Positions 11,278-34,933 of a stretch of DNA of 64,000 nt are shown piece by piece. Below the pieces are notes generated by a model. That model saw nothing but the letters and a program-made list of their open reading frames with translations. It was not told where the DNA came from and did no database searches. The position numbers and the translations under genes were made by a program. This DNA comes from Escherichia coli (GTDB lineage: Bacteria; Pseudomonadota; Gammaproteobacteria; Enterobacterales; Enterobacteriaceae). The stretch lies in the NCBI RefSeq assembly GCF_011045215.1, contig NZ_CP049201.1; one strand, 5' to 3'. Numbering within the stretch: position 1 is the first letter of the stretch; each line of letters starts with the position of its first letter.

Positions 11278-11349
<72 letters not shown>

Positions 11350-11352
11350 ATA

Positions 11353-11428
<76 letters not shown>

Positions 11429-19484: not shown

Positions 19485-19787
19485 TCACCCCCTAAAAATT
19501 ACGTGGCGCAGCGGTTGAGCTTTGCTGTAGTCGATCTCATCGCCATACTCAATATCAAGAGCTTGTCCCTGCGCCAGTTCCATCCACCGAATGTGATCTG
19601 CGGCTTTTTCTTTATCTTTGATATTGATGAACAACAGCGTTGACGAGGGATACCCGTTAACAAGATGGCGATGCAGAGAGAGTCGTATCGCATACCAGGC
19701 AACATTTCGGGCTATACGCTGAAGCAATGTTTCGGCTTCCAGTGTTTTAAGTCGGTATTTTTTCAGTTCATATTTTTCCATCACCAC
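19485..19787 (-). CDS. hypothetical protein, 100 aa
   Basis: ORF with AAGGTGA Shine-Dalgarno; lies between the ydaT-like and O-like genes where Rac has none. Confidence 0.4.
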   Translation of the reverse strand: MVMEKYELKKYRLKTLEAETLLQRIARNVAWYAIRLSLHRHLVNGYPSSTLLFINIKDKEKAADHIRWMELAQGQALDIEYGDEIDYSKAQPLRHVIFRG

Positions 19788-19793
19788 ATCACC

Positions 19794-20216
19794 TTAATGA
19801 ACAACAACAGAATCGCCGGACGAACCGCCGCCGCTGAAATGCGCTTTACGGTAAACGGCCTGGACTGCGTCATCATGCGCATCAATTGCCGTACTCAGTG
19901 CGTCCTGTGCCGCAAGTAATGCCCGTCGTTCCAGGGTATCGAAGATGCTGAGTCGGTGGCGCAGCTCGCGCGGAAGGATTGCCAGAATTGCTGGGATCAG
20001 CTTCTGAATTTTTTCTCTTTGCGTTTTCGTTTCACCTTTCAACCAACGGTGATAGATATTCTGCTGATTGTTCCAGTCCTTGCCTGGTACCAGGGGCAAT
20101 TCGCCGCCCCCCTGGCGCAGATATTCTTCAGTAATTGCATTGGCTACCCATGCCTGCCCTTTTTCGGCTGCCAGGGCTAACAGCACTGATTCGATGTGCT
20201 CATGCCTGATTTTCAT
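19794..20216 (-). CDS. ydaT: YdaT-like protein, 140 aa
   Basis: Second gene of the cro-side operon divergent from the repressor; length and position match Rac YdaT. Confidence 0.55.
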   Translation of the reverse strand: MKIRHEHIESVLLALAAEKGQAWVANAITEEYLRQGGGELPLVPGKDWNNQQNIYHRWLKGETKTQREKIQKLIPAILAILPRELRHRLSIFDTLERRALLAAQDALSTAIDAHDDAVQAVYRKAHFSGGGSSGDSVVVH

Positions 20217-20502
20217 GAATCAACTCCTGTGCATTTTGTGTGTTAGTCTTACATCCAACAGGTAAACCATCGGTCGGATTCGGGTAGATATCAGGCCGAA
20301 GTTCATGAGGTGTAACCTCGAAATTCGTAGCCTCAGCGATACGCAATACCTTTTCGGGGCTTAACTGACTACGGCCAGTAGCTACGAGGCTAATCATTGA
20401 TTGCGAACAACCAGCGAGCGCGGCCAAACAAGACTGTCGTACACGATTTTTTTTCAAATATTCATCTAATGTCATAAGGGTCACCTTAGTAATGCCTGTC
20501 AA
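20200..20502 (-). CDS. ydaS: Cro-like HTH regulator (YdaS-like), about 100 aa
   Basis: HTH motif SCLAALAGCSQSMISLVATGRSQLS; divergent from the repressor gene across a 77-bp AT-rich region. Confidence 0.55.
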   Translation of the reverse strand: MTGITKVTLMTLDEYLKKNRVRQSCLAALAGCSQSMISLVATGRSQLSPEKVLRIAEATNFEVTPHELRPDIYPNPTDGLPVGCKTNTQNAQELIHENQA

Positions 20503-20579
20503 AATATTAACTATATTAATTTATATGATCAATACCCATATCAGTTTGAGATTATGAGTTGTGTTCATAAAATGGTGGT
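20503..20579. promoter_or_regulatory. divergent promoter/operator region between the repressor and cro-like genes
   Basis: 77-bp AT-rich intergenic with repeated ttaactatattaa-like half-sites between divergent HTH regulators. Confidence 0.4.
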
Positions 20580-21044
20580 ATGAGAAGAAAACGCGAAGAA
20601 ATCGCATCGCCAGAAGCTACGCAGCGTCTGCGCGCAGTCTGGGATGCAAAAAAAAGAGAGCTCAAACTGACTCAGGAGCTTGCTGCTGAGCTGATGGGCT
20701 TTGAGACTCAATCCACAGTTAGCCACTATCTCAACGGAAAGGCTCCACTAAACACTGATGCAGCATTAAAATTCGCTGTATTACTAAGAGTTAAGCCTGA
20801 AGAGTTGAGGCCTGATTTAGCTGATCTGATGAATTACGTCCGTTCTTCAGGAACTTATGACGAAAGTTTCGAAGGCGAAGGTTGGCGGATGGTTAACAAG
20901 CAACAAGCTGATTTACTGGATCTTTTTGAAATCCTACCCGAATCAGAAAAAGCAAAACTAATCGAAAGGCTTAAAGGTCAGAATGAACTCTACAAAGAAG
21001 CGTTTGAAAAGATGCTGGCAGCTCAGAAACGCATGAAGAAATAG
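20580..21044 (+). CDS. racR: prophage repressor with cI-like N-terminal HTH and no LexA-type peptidase domain (RacR-like), 154 aa
   Basis: HTH segment LKLTQELAAELMGFETQSTVSHYLNG resembles lambda cI N-domain; C-terminus is a short helical domain; followed by a terminator. Confidence 0.6.
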   Translation: MRRKREEIASPEATQRLRAVWDAKKRELKLTQELAAELMGFETQSTVSHYLNGKAPLNTDAALKFAVLLRVKPEELRPDLADLMNYVRSSGTYDESFEGEGWRMVNKQQADLLDLFEILPESEKAKLIERLKGQNELYKEAFEKMLAAQKRMKK

Positions 21045-21063
21045 CTCCCGCAACCTCGTAACT

Positions 21064-21090
21064 AAACCGCCATTTTTGGCGGTTTTTTTG
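21064..21090 (+). terminator. rho-independent terminator after the repressor gene
   Basis: aaaccgcc-atttt-tggcggttt hairpin followed by a run of 7 T. Confidence 0.6.
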
Positions 21091-21162
21091 TCCCCTCTGC
21101 CCCCTCACCTTACTTTTTTATCAAAAAAAACACTAAAAATTTCATTACGATAGTGCATTTTT

Positions 21163-21189
21163 ATCAACAAAATGCATATTTATGTTGAT
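21163..21189. promoter_or_regulatory. operator-like palindrome in the putative early-left promoter region
   Basis: ATCAACA-n13-TGTTGAT inverted repeat in AT-rich DNA upstream of the first early-left gene. Confidence 0.3.
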
Positions 21190-21279
21190 CACTCATATGA
21201 ATATAACTAATATTATTGCAGAAGTAGCACGGCGCTGTAGGTTTTAGTTCCGCCACCCGGCGTTAAGGGGAGAGATAAG

Positions 21280-21585
21280 ATGACATTTACTCAGGGTATT
21301 GACCCGCTAGAAACGAATAATGCTGTATTTTGTCTGGCGTATGAATTGTCTGTACAGGCATCAACAATGGCAAAGGAAAGAGAGCTAACTCCAGGGCAGG
21401 CACGTCTCGCACTGGAACTCGCCAGCCGGGTATCAGTAGCAAAAAAAATCGCACCAGCCGTAATGGCACGAAACCTGGCTGATGCAATTACAGATCTCAG
21501 GTCACTACAACCATACAATTATCATGTCGAAGAGGTATTAGAAAAATTAATCGCTGCTGCCGACGCCATCATTGATGAACTGTAA
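21280..21585 (+). CDS. hypothetical protein, 101 aa, first gene of the early-left operon
   Basis: AAGGGGAGAG Shine-Dalgarno; occupies the position of N in lambda but is not Arg-rich. Confidence 0.4.
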   Translation: MTFTQGIDPLETNNAVFCLAYELSVQASTMAKERELTPGQARLALELASRVSVAKKIAPAVMARNLADAITDLRSLQPYNYHVEEVLEKLIAAADAIIDEL

Positions 21586-22195
21586 TAATTGATATGCGGG
21601 AATTTCTATTCCTGAGAGATGCATTTTTCACGCCCGGACAACGCCCGGCAATTGCCAGATTCAGTTTTTCACGCTGCTCTGGCGTAAGAAGTTTAACAAG
21701 TTCTTCAAGAACAAGCGCGGTAGCCTCTAATCTGGCGGAAAGATAATCAATATTTTTGTGTTGAGATTGAATAGGCATAAGCAATTCCTTACTGGTTGTG
21801 TGAGAGCGCCAGTATACCACCGAGCCTGAAGTGGTAAAAAAAGACAAGCACACAACACGAAAGCGTACGGAGGAGGTGTTTTTCCCTTAGAAGGCTTGTC
21901 GTTAAATTTCTTCGACCGTGCGCTTCCGGTTGTGAATAACAACATTGCTGTGTGTAGTCTTGGCGGCATCAGTTTTTTCTTGAAGTTCGGCTGATGTCCG
22001 CCCTTTTTAAAGTGAATTTTGTGATGCGGTGAATGCGGCTCAGCGCACGCGGAACAGTTAAAAGGCCAGTTGACCTCCGTATTGGTTCTTATGGGTGGGT
22101 TCTCTGTATCCGGCGTTAATTGTTAACTGGTTAACGTCACCTGGAGGCACCAGGCACCGCATCGACAAAATTCATTTGTGAAAATGGAGATAATT

Positions 22196-22417
22196 ATGAT
22201 TGCTCATCACTTCGGAACTGATGAAATACCACGTCAGTGTGTGACTCCTGGCGATTATGTTCTTCATGAAGGTCGGACATATATCGCCTCAGCAAACAAT
22301 ATTAAAAAGCGAAAACTTTATATTCGTAGCCTGACTACAAAAACATGCATTTCTGACTGCATGATTAAAGTCTTCCTCGGTCGTGATGGTTTACCTGTAA
22401 AGGCGGAGTCATGGTGA
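22196..22417 (+). CDS. kilR: KilR-like cell-division inhibitor, 73 aa
   Basis: [35 protein letters not shown]...; length and position match Rac KilR. Confidence 0.7.
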
Positions 22418-22587
22418 TGACTAAGAAAATAAAATGTGCTTACCACCTTTGCAATAAAGGAATTGAAGAAAGCAAAAGCATTAAAAGACCACTTCATTTC
22501 ATGCGTGGAGTTATCCCAACGACGGAAATGAAAAAATATTGTAGTGAAAATTGTGCCGAAAAAGACCAGATGGCACACGAACTCTAA
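22417..22587 (+). CDS. ydaE: YdaE-like small Cys-rich protein, 56 aa; not in the ORF track
   Basis: ATG overlaps the kilR stop (TGATG); translation [56 protein letters not shown]. Confidence 0.7.
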   Translation: MTKKIKCAYHLCNKGIEESKSIKRPLHFMRGVIPTTEMKKYCSENCAEKDQMAHEL

Positions 22588-22661
22588 TTAACTGACTATT
22601 CGAAACTGAATTTATGCCAGCAATGGCAGGGATTCTTTCAACCTTAAAAAAGGAAACAGCA

Positions 22662-22961
22662 ATGCACAAGCATATTAAATGTGAAATTGAACTTGATGTT
22701 ATTAACGATTCTCTCGCCGAATTTAAATGCGGGAATACATTACATGGTTTTATTCAGATTTCCCAAAAAGAAAACATTACGGTAATTATTGATGGTGGTT
22801 ACGTTCTGGGAACATTTGATTGTGATGCATGTGCCCTTAAAGAAGTCGCATTACTCGCAGCTCGTATTGAAGAGGCTGACAAGAAATACGGTATCAGTTA
22901 TCAACGACTGAAAGAACTCTCTTATATCGCATCATCAGTTCATTTCTTTTATGCAATCTGA
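22662..22961 (+). CDS. racC: RacC-like protein, about 99 aa
   Basis: Position between ydaE and the recE-like gene as in Rac; start taken at MHKHIKCEIE. Confidence 0.5.
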   Translation: MHKHIKCEIELDVINDSLAEFKCGNTLHGFIQISQKENITVIIDGGYVLGTFDCDACALKEVALLAARIEEADKKYGISYQRLKELSYIASSVHFFYAI

Positions 22962-22985
22962 ATCTGAGTTGAGGTTAAAAAAATA

Positions 22986-24887
22986 ATGAGCATAAAACAA
23001 CACTTCCTGTTACGGAAAGCGAAAAAATCATCCGGTGAACCTGACGCAGTTCTGTGGGCAAGCGACGATCTCGAATCGACCAGTGCCACTCTGGACTACC
23101 TGATTGTTAAGTCAGGTAAAAAACTGAGCAACTATTTTAAAGCTGTTGCTACGAATTTTCCTGTCGTTAACGACCTGCCCCCAGAAGGGGAGATCGATTT
23201 TACGTGGTGTGAACGCTATCAACTCGGCAAGGACTCCATCACCTGGGAACTAAAACCAGGTGCAGCACCAGACGACGTTCACCATCAGGAGAATATCCCG
23301 GAAACTGAAGAACTGGCTGGAGACCAGGAAGAAAACGCGCAGGCGGACGCTCACGGGGATTGCCAGGATTGCGAAGTTCCTGTAGCCACACTCAGTCTTA
23401 CTCATCGTTTCCTTCATCTCTTCTTTTTCGGTCAGATGGAAGGTGGAAAATACAGTAGTCACGCCACGCCGGAACAGCGCAATACCGTCATCCGGATGGA
23501 GCTGGATACGGAGGACAGCTACCTCCAGAGTCTGCTTACAGCAGTACGCTCTCATCCTGAACTGGATAAGCTGACAAACCACCATCTTGGCAGACTGGCG
23601 GAGTCTGTATCCAGAGTGTTTACCCACACAGAAACCCGTTGCATCAGCCCCGCTGAATTCGACAAATTCATTTCCACCTGGATGAAAACTGATTATCTGG
23701 ATCAGGGATTACTGACAAAAGAATGGGCGAAGGGAAACTGCGTATCTGAAATCAATCGCACCCCGTCGGGCGCTAATGCCGGTGGCGGTATCCTTACCGA
23801 CCGTGGAGAAGGTTTTGTCCATGATGATGCATCAGTAGCGCGTGACGTAGCCGCTGGCGTACTGGCACGTTCAATGGATATCGATATTTACAATCCACAT
23901 CCAGCACACGCTAAACGTATTGGGGAAATTGTCGCTGAAAATAAACCGCCATTTTCTGTTTTTTTCAGCAAATTCATCACCATGCCTGGCCACAAGGATT
24001 TCTCCCGCGCCATCGTGGTTGCGTCCGTGAAAGAAGCGCCAGTCGGTATAGAGGCTACCCCACACCATGTCACTGAATATCTGAACAGGGTGCTGACTGA
24101 AACCGATCATGCCAACCCTGATCCGGAAATCGTGGATATTGCCTGCGGTCGCTCCTCTGCCCCGATGCCACAGCGTGTAACAGAAGAAGAAAAACCGCAA
24201 CCATCTTGCGCAATGGCAGATGAACAGGCAACGGCTGAAACAGTGGAACCGGATACAAGTGAACATCATCAGGACACGCAGCCGCTGGATGCCAAGTCAC
24301 AGGCCGATGCGAAATATCAGAAACTGCGGGAAGAACTCCATGAAGCCCGGAAAAACATTCCGCCCAAAAATCCTGTCGATACAGACAAAATGCTGGCAGT
24401 CCATCGCGGTGAGTTCGTTGAAGGAATTAGCGACCCGAATGATCCGAAATGGGTGAAGGGAATTGAAACCCGCGATTCTGTGAACCAGAACCTGCCAGAA
24501 ACGGAAAAAACCAGTCAGGATGTGAAACAACCTGAGCCAGTAGTGCAACGGGAACCGGAAATAGTCTGCACCGCCTGCGGTCAGAGCGGTGGCGGCAACT
24601 GCCCTGATTGTGGCGCGGTGATGGGCGACGCAACATATCAGGAAACATTCGATGAAGAGAATCAGGCTGAAACTCAGGAAAATGATCCGGAGGAAATGGA
24701 AGGCACTGAACCATCATTAGAAAAACTCGACTGGAAAAGACAAGTGGTGATTGCGGCTGTTTATGGTTTGTGTGCGAATCCTGCAGGTATAGCCTCAGCG
24801 CCATTAATTCCGGGTATTGCAATGATGATTGCCAACAAGCTTGAAAATTTTGGGGTGACGGATGATGAGCACATACCCGATTTTTGA
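22986..24887 (+). CDS. recE: RecE N-terminal region homolog lacking the C-terminal exonuclease domain, 633 aa
   Basis: N-terminus [26 protein letters not shown] and internal blocks ([50 protein letters not shown]) match my recollection of Rac RecE residues 1 to about 600; ORF ends where the gam-like gene begins. Confidence 0.55.
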
Positions 24888-26629: not shown

Positions 26630-26856
26630 GCGCAGCCACAAAGCTCACAGGAGAAAAACCAGTGCGATACACAAAAATTAAACCATGTCCATTTTGTGGT
26701 TGTCCATCAGTAACGGTGAAAGCCATTTCAGGATATTACCGAGCGAAGTGTAACGGATGCGAATCCCGAACCGGTTATGGTGGAAGTGAAAAGGAAGCAC
26801 TCGAAAGATGGAATAAACGAACCACTGGAAATAATAATGGAGGTGTTCATGTATAA
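26620..26856 (+). CDS. ralR: RalR-like restriction-alleviation protein / type I toxin
   Basis: [48 protein letters not shown] matches Rac RalR. Confidence 0.7.
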
Positions 26857-27037
26857 AATTACCGCCACTATTGAAAAGGAAGGTGGCACTCCTACTAACT
26901 GGACAAGATATTCAAAATCTAAACTAACGAAATCAGAATGCGAAAAAATGCTCTCAGGTAAAAAAGAAGCGGGCGTTTCCAGAGAGCAGAAAGTAAAACT
27001 GATAAATTTTAATTGCGAGAAACTTCAGTCCTGGTGA
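26837..27037 (+). CDS. ydaC: YdaC-like small protein; start uncertain
   Basis: [23 protein letters not shown]...; position between ralR and xis as in Rac. Confidence 0.5.
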   Translation: MEVFMYKITATIEKEGGTPTNWTRYSKSKLTKSECEKMLSGKKEAGVSREQKVKLINFNCEKLQSW

Positions 27038-31338: not shown

Positions 31339-31459
31339 AAAAAAAAGCCGACTCATCAAAGTCGGCGTCGTACGAATCAATTGTGCTATGCAGTAATTCA
31401 AAAAAGGAAGTAAGACAATATGGAGCGCAACGCCCATCGCTTGACGTTGCATTCACCTG
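31339..31459 (-). ncRNA. fnrS: FnrS small RNA
   Basis: Reverse complement reads GCAGGTGAATGCAACGTCAAGCGATGGGCGTTGCGCTCC...GACGCCGACTTTGATGAGTCGGCTTTTTTTT with terminal hairpin; lies between zntB and dbpA as expected. Confidence 0.75.
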
Positions 31460-31555
31460 CAAGAGAGATATTGCCCTGAATGGGTAGAGAGTTTATTGAC
31501 TTCGCTCAAACTTTGCGGCGTTTTTGTATACAGACAGCCGGAAAAATTGCTTTTG

Positions 31556-34837: not shown

Positions 34838-34933
34838 ACCGGCGCAGAGGAGACAATGCCGGATTTAAGACGCGGATGCACTGCTGTGTGTACTGTAGAG
34901 TCTGGCGGATGTCGACAGACTCTATTTTTTTAT
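34838..34933 (+). ncRNA. mcaS: McaS (IsrA) small RNA
   Basis: ACCGGCGCAGAGGAGACAATGCCGGATTTAAGACGCGGATGCACTGCTGTGTGTACTGTAGAGTCTGGCGGATGTCGACAGACTCTATTTTTTTAT between smrA and abgR. Confidence 0.7.

Follow-up and report, generated by a model that had tools for sequence, protein, structure and literature searches.

The Rac and Qin prophages of Escherichia coli K-12 each carry a small RNA (sRNA) gene in front of a gene for a division inhibitor: according to the K-12 annotation, kilS is located between sieB and kilR in Rac, and dicF precedes dicB in Qin. KilS of K-12 is dependent on Hfq and accumulates in the stationary phase, and its transcription begins at 1,418,502, whereas the site of RNase E has been mapped to 1,418,471 (PMC8175672). 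In Qin, cleavage by RNase III at a long stem makes the 5′ end of a 190-nt DicF, and RNase E then makes the 53-nt form. RNase III also cuts the readthrough RNA 19 nt past the terminator, resulting in a 72-nt DicF (PMC5069750). The 3′ region of DicF acts on ftsZ and pykA, and its 5′ end acts on xylR. The silencing of kilR in K-12 is dependent on Rho/NusG (PMC5793797).

Here, we analyzed 64,000 nucleotides of the E. coli contig NZ_CP049201.1 (this whole stretch is referred to as the window), focusing on the region between a phage repressor gene and kilR (the coordinates of the features are listed in Table 1). The initial annotation had found no convincing gene in the second half of this region (21586–22177), and had suggested either that exclusion genes are degraded there or that the span functions as RNA, for instance through nut-like sites or an sRNA. 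Our analysis indicates that the span is probably a mosaic early-left leader of a Rac-like lambdoid prophage with every part occupied. The region is mostly ordinary: a known KilS/DicF leader module is joined to a rare accessory-gene module, which consists of a 101-aa gene (orf101) and a small gene on the minus strand. A seemingly empty prophage leader was in this way resolved mainly into a known RNA module.

The RNA module upstream of kilR

The sequence at 21918–22008 was identical to K-12 KilS (b4833) at 87 of 92 aligned bases. Of the Northern probes published by Bar et al., probe 1 matched the window exactly, and probe 2 matched with 3 mismatches. The ortholog shares with K-12 KilS its position and strand upstream of kilR, the terminator hairpin, the U tract, and the downstream leader, and the seeds are equal apart from one G-to-A change just upstream of the seed. 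The predicted terminator hairpin, GGCGGCAUCAG...CUGAUGUCCGCC (21962–22002), has a 13-bp stem with one bulge (z −3.1) and is followed by U5. In contrast, the first 6 nt and the start-site region differ from those of K-12 KilS, the stem-loop of the window is of the Qin type, and the upstream neighbors sieB, ydaF, and ydaG are replaced by orf101 and the minus-strand gene. The RNA-based function suggested initially was thus borne out in its sRNA part, by the KilS ortholog, the processing stem, and the kilR leader, whereas its nut-like part was not, as no nut site of the lambda type was found (see below).

On the Rfam model of DicF (RF00039), KilS of the window gave 41.1 bits at 21949–22003 (E 1e-6) against a gathering score of 48, and K-12 KilS and Qin DicF gave 39.1 and 76.7 bits, respectively. 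Judging from its sequence, KilS is a diverged relative of DicF. The locus resembles dicBF of Qin in having a repressor, small genes, an RNase III stem, an sRNA with a terminator, a structured leader, and a division inhibitor; homology between the two loci covers the stem, the base of the terminator, and the leader. Unlike in Qin, approximately 90 nt between the stem and the sRNA are missing in the window, the 5′ seed and the loop/3′ region, which are used by DicF for pairing with xylR, ftsZ, and pykA, are replaced, and the next gene is kilR, not dicB. No above-chance pairing of KilS with the ftsZ translation start region was found in a crude test, in which the shuffle fractions were 0.69 and 0.85 compared with 0.067 for DicF. 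RNAduplex applied to whole sRNAs yielded long, unrealistic duplexes, and only comparisons with shuffled sequences and an explicit 16-bp stretch were used.

A stem-loop of approximately 80–90 nt was present upstream of the sRNA in 110 of 124 loci. Its consensus fold contained 18 pairs. In the comparison of the Rac type with the Qin type, both partners had changed in 4 of these pairs, and hardly any pair was broken; the Salmonella copy showed a further change from A-U to G-C. The stem of the window is, by sequence comparison, homologous to the Qin stem upstream of DicF. Both parts of the DicF-type arrangement, an upstream stem and a downstream structured leader before a division inhibitor, were present here, and cleavage is predicted by homology. 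The loop of the stem holds the conserved sequence GTCGTTAAATTT (21898–21909), including a −10-like TAAATT (21903–21908). The start of K-12 KilS lies seven bases after this TAAATT, and the hexamer is kept in the window.

The consensus fold of the kilR leader contained 37 pairs, 3 of which were compensatory among the copies compared. The domain is closed by a long-range helix of about 22 bp (22009–22031 with 22155–22177), is variable in its center, and includes hairpins at 22112–22138, with three compensatory pairs, and at 22140–22154. The hairpin CCUGGAGGCACCAGG is among the conserved elements of the leader. With the STnc100 model (RF02076), the leader gave 33.3 bits at 22005–22210, not reaching the gathering score of 47. 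It aligned with STnc100/PasD over the full 206-position model, and the closing helix and the GGAGGCACC hairpin design were common to both; however, the leader is here a 5′ untranslated region (UTR) directly before kilR or dicB, whereas STnc100 is free-standing near late or stx genes. The gene after the leader encoded KilR in 48 loci, DicB in approximately 57, and other proteins in approximately 10. Since the RNase III cut in Qin falls in the 5′ strand of the leader helix, the helix was read as an RNase III site, and in the window prophage the closing helix would likewise be such a site.

Approximately 120 further copies of the module were gathered by means of the invariant junction CCCTTTTTAAAGTGAATTTTGTG, and the unit of sRNA, terminator, and leader was found in >120 viral contigs. 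In the sRNA slot, defined as the 70 nt upstream of the junction CCCTTTTTAAAG (loci L008–L127), 5′ seed and hairpin were combined in no fewer than six ways, which included the DicF type, the KilS type, a DicF-like hairpin bearing a KilS seed, CCAUGUUGAUUAC types, and others.

The following mechanism is proposed for the locus. Transcription would start at the repressor-controlled pL-like promoter and pass through the conserved leader into orf101, a rare gene that would replace the usual ydaG/ydaF (DUF1391) genes. An accessory gene with its own expression, positioned and oriented like sieB and frameshifted here, would lie on the opposite strand. The next 350 bases would constitute one RNA module common to Rac and Qin and composed of the stem, KilS, the terminator, and the folded leader, in which both long helices (the stem and the closing helix of the leader) would correspond to the RNase III substrates of Qin. 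In the lysogen, KilS would be produced either from the start inside the stem loop or from processed pL transcripts, RNase E would trim it so that the seed becomes the 5′ end, and the trimmed KilS would act with Hfq on host mRNAs. The KilS terminator and Rho/NusG termination would keep kilR and recET silent in the absence of readthrough. The module illustrates how the toxicity of kilR and dicB is held back by several layers, namely a terminator, RNase III helices, and Rho. The present sequence analysis provides the anatomy, the homology, the conservation of the structures, and the complementarity of the seed, and KilS expression and its Hfq dependence, the RNase cuts in Qin, and the Rho/NusG silencing of kilR come from K-12 work by others; that the whole mechanism applies to the window prophage, and which targets it has, we infer.

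Several points weigh against this mechanism. For this strain, it is a prediction from the sequence. The TG of the extended −10 element of K-12 KilS is CG in the window, and an independent KilS promoter may therefore be weak or absent. In a formal covariation count, the terminator hairpin of KilS was not better than the controls, because its sequence hardly varies and alignments among the subtypes are poor. With both DicF and STnc100, the Rfam matches were clearly not random but scored under the curated thresholds; as the scores were just under, automatic annotation misses the RNA. The mechanism does not account for the passage of RNA polymerase through the KilS terminator to kilR/recET without an N-like factor, and orf101 and the minus-strand gene carry no assigned function.

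The KilS seed and its likeness to McaS

The seed CAUUGCUGUGUGUAGUC is single-stranded and conserved across several hairpin backgrounds, and Salmonella has retained it as well, with two compensatory pairs in the hairpin. The RNase E site mapped in K-12 would place this seed at the 5′ end of the processed RNA. A search of the window with the complement of the seed gave one good match, which was located in the sense orientation inside the core sRNA McaS (IsrA), where the sequence is CACUGCUGUGUGUAC. The seeds of KilS and McaS were equal at 13 of 14 positions (CAUUGCUGUGUGUA vs. CACUGCUGUGUGUA), and the score of the local alignment between KilS and McaS was matched by 6 of 2000 shuffles.

McaS represses csgD via binding site 1, which is located far upstream in the csgD leader (PMC6061853). 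With csgD −98 to −83, corresponding to McaS binding site 1, the KilS seed formed an uninterrupted run of 16 pairs that includes one G-U pair, and the calculated duplex energies were −27.5 and −28.8 kcal/mol compared with −16.7 ± 3.5 kcal/mol for shuffles. The 5′ end of DicF showed no pairing with the same csgD segment. The sequence ACACTGCTGTGTGTAGT, a perfect 16-nt Watson-Crick complement of the csgD site, was found in 14 of 132 module copies. A KilS-type seed was carried by 65 of the 132 copies, and the remainder had DicF-type or other seeds. About half of the sampled modules have the KilS seed and half have others, a distribution suggestive of interchangeable seeds on one shared terminator scaffold. 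In the sRNA slot, seeds appear to have been exchanged while the base of the terminator stayed the same.

In RNA interaction by ligation and sequencing (RIL-seq) of K-12, yncL is the only robust target of KilS. The single interactor of the yncL 3′ UTR in the published feature table has 24 interactions and an SIC of 0.867932, which are exactly the values of McaS. Judging from these matching numbers, yncL appears to be a common RIL-seq partner of KilS and McaS.

KilS and McaS are thus alike in the seed, in the complementarity to binding site 1 of csgD, and in the apparent partner yncL. On the other hand, they differ in the 5′ hairpin, terminator, promoter, and genomic context, and only 2 of the 4 GGA triplets of McaS, which are candidate CsrA motifs, are matched in KilS. 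The McaS covariance model gave no match at E up to 1 in 19500–24000, and the two RNAs have the seed alone in common. The McaS flank GUCUGGCGGAUGUC resembles KilS GUCUUGGCGGCAUC; together with the shared seed, this similar flank raises the possibility of common ancestry, and McaS may share ancestry with the KilS family.

We tentatively propose that the KilS-type sRNAs of Rac-like prophages, that of the window included, are seed mimics of McaS, through which prophage transcription would feed into the control of curli/biofilm and of further McaS targets, yncL among them; this reading is plausible, and we would stop short of calling it probable. The near-identity of the KilS and McaS seeds and the pairing with csgD are new as far as checked, and no mention of KilS together with csgD or McaS was found in the searched literature from 2021 onward. 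KilS has hitherto had no clear target or role, and the 16-bp match to csgD provides a specific, testable idea. If true, the mimicry of McaS links Rac-type prophages to biofilm control.

Alternatively, the KilS-like element could be only a tL1-type terminator or attenuator for kilR and the short RNA a by-product without a trans function. The element indeed lies within the kilR 5′ UTR, its hairpin is the most conserved part, and K-12 KilS has few RIL-seq partners (3 unique). However, we consider such a restricted role unlikely: the Hfq dependence and stationary-phase accumulation of K-12 KilS argue against it, as do the conservation of the single-stranded 5′ stretch while hairpins are swapped with compensatory changes, the exposure of this stretch by the mapped K-12 RNase E site, and a seed match to McaS and csgD far better than chance.

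The accessory-gene module in place of sieB, ydaF, and ydaG

The K-12 annotation confirmed that Rac has sieB, ydaF, and ydaG at this position, as stated initially. In the window, tblastn detected none of SieB, YdaF, and YdaG; the best E value was 0.07, and nothing was obtained in 21–22.2 kb. Clear homologs of these genes in the span, which would contradict the initial annotation, were looked for in this way, and none was found. No residual similarity to the K-12 proteins was present in the span either, contrary to the suggestion of degraded exclusion genes. As judged from these searches, SieB, YdaF, and YdaG are absent, not degraded. The breakpoints of homology with K-12 Rac were located by blastn at 21282 and 21918, and the identity from 21918 on was 88%. 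Between the breakpoints lies a different module, composed of orf101 and the convergent small gene on the minus strand, which is 96–98% identical in the inducible phage Rac-SA53 (genes rac11 and rac10).

A remnant of decayed Rac sieB, ydaF, and ydaG genes might be expected from their occurrence at the same position in K-12 Rac and from the frameshift of the minus-strand open reading frame (ORF) in the window. Such decay is hardly credible here, as tblastn with K-12 SieB, YdaF, YdaG, YdfA, YdfB, and YdfC (word size 2, E ≤10) was blank in and near the span, and the interval between the breakpoints is filled by an intact module of another kind, which has protein families of its own and is conserved at 96–98% identity in Rac-SA53 and other genomes.

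Among 5,426 complete E. coli genomes, 17 contained the module, as did 2 of approximately 113 sampled viral contigs carrying the same downstream RNA module. A DUF1391 gene stands in its place in 102 of 117 loci with that RNA module. A codon-position test on close relatives was underpowered, with 37 variable sites and counts of 7/5/12 and 1/0/4.

The absence of a convincing gene in 21586–22177, as claimed initially, did not hold for either part of the span: the minus-strand ORF, with its ATG at 21778, is a member of a conserved protein family, and the remainder is conserved RNA-coding sequence. The family comprises proteins of 77–80 aa in E. coli, Salmonella, and Pantoea, and the ORF is annotated by the NCBI Prokaryotic Genome Annotation Pipeline (PGAP) in relatives. 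Nothing usable was obtained for the protein in Pfam, PHROGs, and NCBIfam. In Salmonella and Pantoea, the gene is again the convergent partner of an orf101 homolog, and in the window it has the place and orientation of sieB in K-12 Rac. DNA alignment with Rac-SA53, strain 06-00048, and RM9088 revealed a 2-bp deletion between 21599 and 21600, which shifts the reading frame, resulting in a protein of 69 aa in which the last approximately 18 residues are replaced by 10 unrelated ones. The deletion is located just downstream of the orf101 stop codon.

Variants of the module were observed in other genomes. In Salmonella locus L245 (GCA_007607555.1, 1650–4560), the module of orf101, minus-strand gene, KilS-like element, and leader directly follows replication genes and a Q-type antiterminator gene; there is no repressor in between, and the locus has the appearance of a prophage remnant that underwent rearrangement. 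A different gene (104 aa) occupies the minus-strand slot in L247. Pantoea sp. JZ2 (L248, 2753–3000) keeps the ORF pair and the cassette described below, without the KilS/DicF-like hairpin or the STnc100-like leader, and has another long stem of 14 bp (UUAGCUGGCUGUGG...CCACAGCCAGCUAA) before kilR.

The conserved cassette upstream of the minus-strand gene contains the Shine-Dalgarno (SD) sequence AAGGAA, the inverted repeat CTGG..CCAG (21792–21812), a −10-like TATACT with an upstream TG (21811–21816), and a −35-like TTTACC (21833–21838). It also contains two interleaved inverted repeats, namely ACCAC/GTGGT (21816–21835) and GCCTG at 21824–21828 with CAAGC at 21845–21849. The whole fits an extended −10 promoter, TTTACC-16-TGgTATACT. 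The exact 22-mer ATACCACCGAGCCTGAAGTGGT from the cassette was found in >120 viral contigs, and in these contigs the cassette is located 5′ of at least 23 unrelated families of small proteins (59–163 aa), among them SfII gene 36 and a zinc-ribbon protein of Klebsiella phages. In the literature, neither a mapped start site of sieB nor a description of the cassette sequence was found. The cassette is, as far as checked, a widespread portable unit that is new. Its occurrence before at least 23 unrelated small genes marks a slot for variable accessory genes beside the repressor in many enterobacterial prophages, and exclusion or defence genes might be sought in this slot.

The interleaved repeats have the topology of a pseudoknot, and the cassette could be more than a promoter, namely a pseudoknot-like RNA leader that controls the variable small genes. 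Because MAFFT misaligned the short cassette variants, the pairs of the pseudoknot were assigned by eye. Upstream of K-12 sieB, GCCUG/CAGGC of the first repeat is changed to CCCGG/CCGGG, with two changes on both sides. Three variants yield G-U wobbles on the minus strand only, and the SD-adjacent hairpin covaries (CUGG/CCAG, CUUGG/CCAAG, and CCUUUUA/UAAAAGG). However, the same DNA fits a sigma-70 extended −10 promoter in which T1, A2, T3, and T6 are invariant, and no conserved promoter was found upstream of the cassette. Moreover, palindromic operators can likewise change on both arms together, one Salmonella variant favors the other strand, and there was no Rfam match. On balance, an RNA leader of this type is possible but less likely than not.

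Operators, the first early-left gene, and the prophage setting

The operator-like palindromes reported initially upstream of orf101 are real and consist of TGCATTTT-N7-AAAATGCA (21154–21176) and ATCAACA-N13-TGTTGAT (21163–21189). These palindromes amount to three adjacent operator-like sites, which overlap the pL-like promoter. Exact matches to TATG-N9-CATA in the window were only three (20524, 20553, and 21181), all flanking the repressor gene; the two regions flanking this gene together hold all three exact matches and two one-mismatch matches. Window-wide, the pattern was not enriched, with 24 matches compared with 22 expected. The sites at 20524 and 20553 are located between the repressor and cro-like genes, and the layout of these putative operators is the classical lambdoid arrangement. 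The hexamers of the pL-like promoter aligned with the TTGACT-17-TAATAT of a relative carrying a different repressor/immunity type. A sigma-70 match, TTGAGA-16-TAAAAT (10/12), was observed at 20546–20573 on the plus strand, just 5′ of the repressor gene, where it overlaps the operator-like site at 20553–20569; it is likely to be a pRM-type promoter.

Downstream of the pL-like promoter, 39 nt (21244–21282) were 100% identical by blastn to the K-12 Rac ydaG leader with its ATG. This leader has a 25-nt core, GTTCCGCCACCCGGCGTTAAGGGGA (21254–21278), that includes the SD sequence. The core did not vary among 57 loci, which represent several promoter/operator types and no fewer than 8 different first genes, and it is not conspicuously structured. 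The core was also considered as a YdaT-box, which was rejected as the motif differs.

The description of orf101 as neither Arg-rich nor N-like was correct: the protein has 5 Arg in 101 aa, is net acidic, and has no match to the N family. No family match, N included, was found in Pfam, PHROG, or NCBIfam. Full-length homologs with 53–78% identity were found in E. coli and Salmonella, and an exhaustive profile search among 1.84 billion proteins yielded only 7 cluster representatives and no connection to a known family. The AlphaFold2 model had a predicted local distance difference test score (pLDDT) of 55, too uncertain for a fold search. The search for nut-like sites of the lambda type came out negative, as no boxA within one mismatch was found in the leader region. 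The pL leader contained only one hairpin, which folded no better than shuffled sequence, and no stable boxB-like hairpin. Compared with lambda N/nutL, only the first-gene position after pL and a downstream tL1-like terminator are alike, and an N-family match, an Arg-rich motif, boxA, and a stable boxB-like hairpin are all lacking here.

The position of orf101 in place of N, the strong intrinsic terminator between pL and kilR/recET, and the invariance of the 25-nt core across immunity types might nevertheless point to an N-independent or novel antitermination system, with orf101 as the antiterminator and the core as a nut-like RNA site that allows passage of the KilS terminator. This is very unlikely. 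No fewer than 8 unrelated genes, among them ydaG and DUF1391 genes, occur as the first gene after the core, which is therefore not paired specifically with orf101, and in 102 of 117 loci the same terminator occurs without orf101. In addition, no boxA was found, orf101 is acidic without an Arg-rich motif, and the folding of the leader equals that of shuffled sequence.

Table 1. Positions of the features in and around the early-left leader, in window coordinates.
Feature	Position	Strand	Remarks
tRNA genes	11278–11428	−	two adjacent genes; Rfam gathering threshold reached
HTH (helix-turn-helix) repressor gene	20580–21044	+	154 aa; HTH_3 match; C-terminus DicA-like
Intrinsic terminator 3′ of repressor gene	21064–21085	+	9-bp stem, then T run; terminator scan
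Operator-like sites	21162–21178, 21181–21197, 21196–21212		three adjacent 17-bp sites, TATG-N9-CATA type; sequence pattern
pL-like promoter	21185–21213	+	TTGATC-17-TAATAT, read from sequence; predicted start near 21220
Conserved 5′ leader of first early-left gene	21242–21279	+	contains core GTTCCGCCACCCGGCGTTAAGGGGA
orf101	21280–21585	+	first early-left gene, 101 aa; acidic, predicted all-helical
Terminator-like hairpin with T8	21449–21471	−	inside orf101; terminator scan; candidate terminator of minus-strand gene
Minus-strand small gene	21569–21778	−	MPIQSQ...; convergent with orf101; family alignment
Upstream cassette of minus-strand gene	21779–21851	−	73 bp, conserved
Long stem-loop	21852–21933	+	RNase III-type stem; 5′ strand 21852–21870, 3′ strand 21916–21933; RNAfold −33.6 kcal/mol
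KilS ortholog	21912–22008	+	approximately 94–97 nt; seed at 21943–21959
Structured kilR 5′ leader	22009–22195	+	approximately 190 nt; consensus fold of 41 diverse copies
kilR	22196–22417	+	FtsZ inhibitor; 94.5% aa identity to K-12 KilR; NCBIfam PRK11354, 160.9 bits
ydaE	22411–22587	+	follows kilR
RalA antitoxin sRNA	26855–27033	−	217 bits; Rfam gathering threshold reached
FnrS	31343–31460	−	135 bits; Rfam gathering threshold reached
McaS (IsrA), core sRNA	34838–34933	+	RF00115; same window, approximately 13 kb from KilS

At 18.3–27 kb, the window contains a Rac-like lambdoid prophage's immunity and early region, and its orientation is the reverse of that in K-12. The minus strand of this region carries a ydaU-like replication gene, ydaT (95.7% aa identity to K-12), and a YdaS/Cro-like gene. 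The plus strand carries the 154-aa repressor gene and then the early-left operon with kilR, ydaE, a small ORF, and recE, and the small ORF, which stands in place of racC, had no detectable similarity to K-12 RacC. Since RalA, FnrS, and McaS are found further along the window, the prophage is located at the usual Rac locus of the Escherichia chromosome.

In E. coli RM9088, the closest relative (L002, 3630–4478), a Rha-family gene is inserted between the KilS leader and kilR. The insert includes a C4 antisense RNA (73 bits) and IsrK (63 bits), and corresponds to an antirepressor-control unit of the P1/P7 type within a Rac-like early-left operon.

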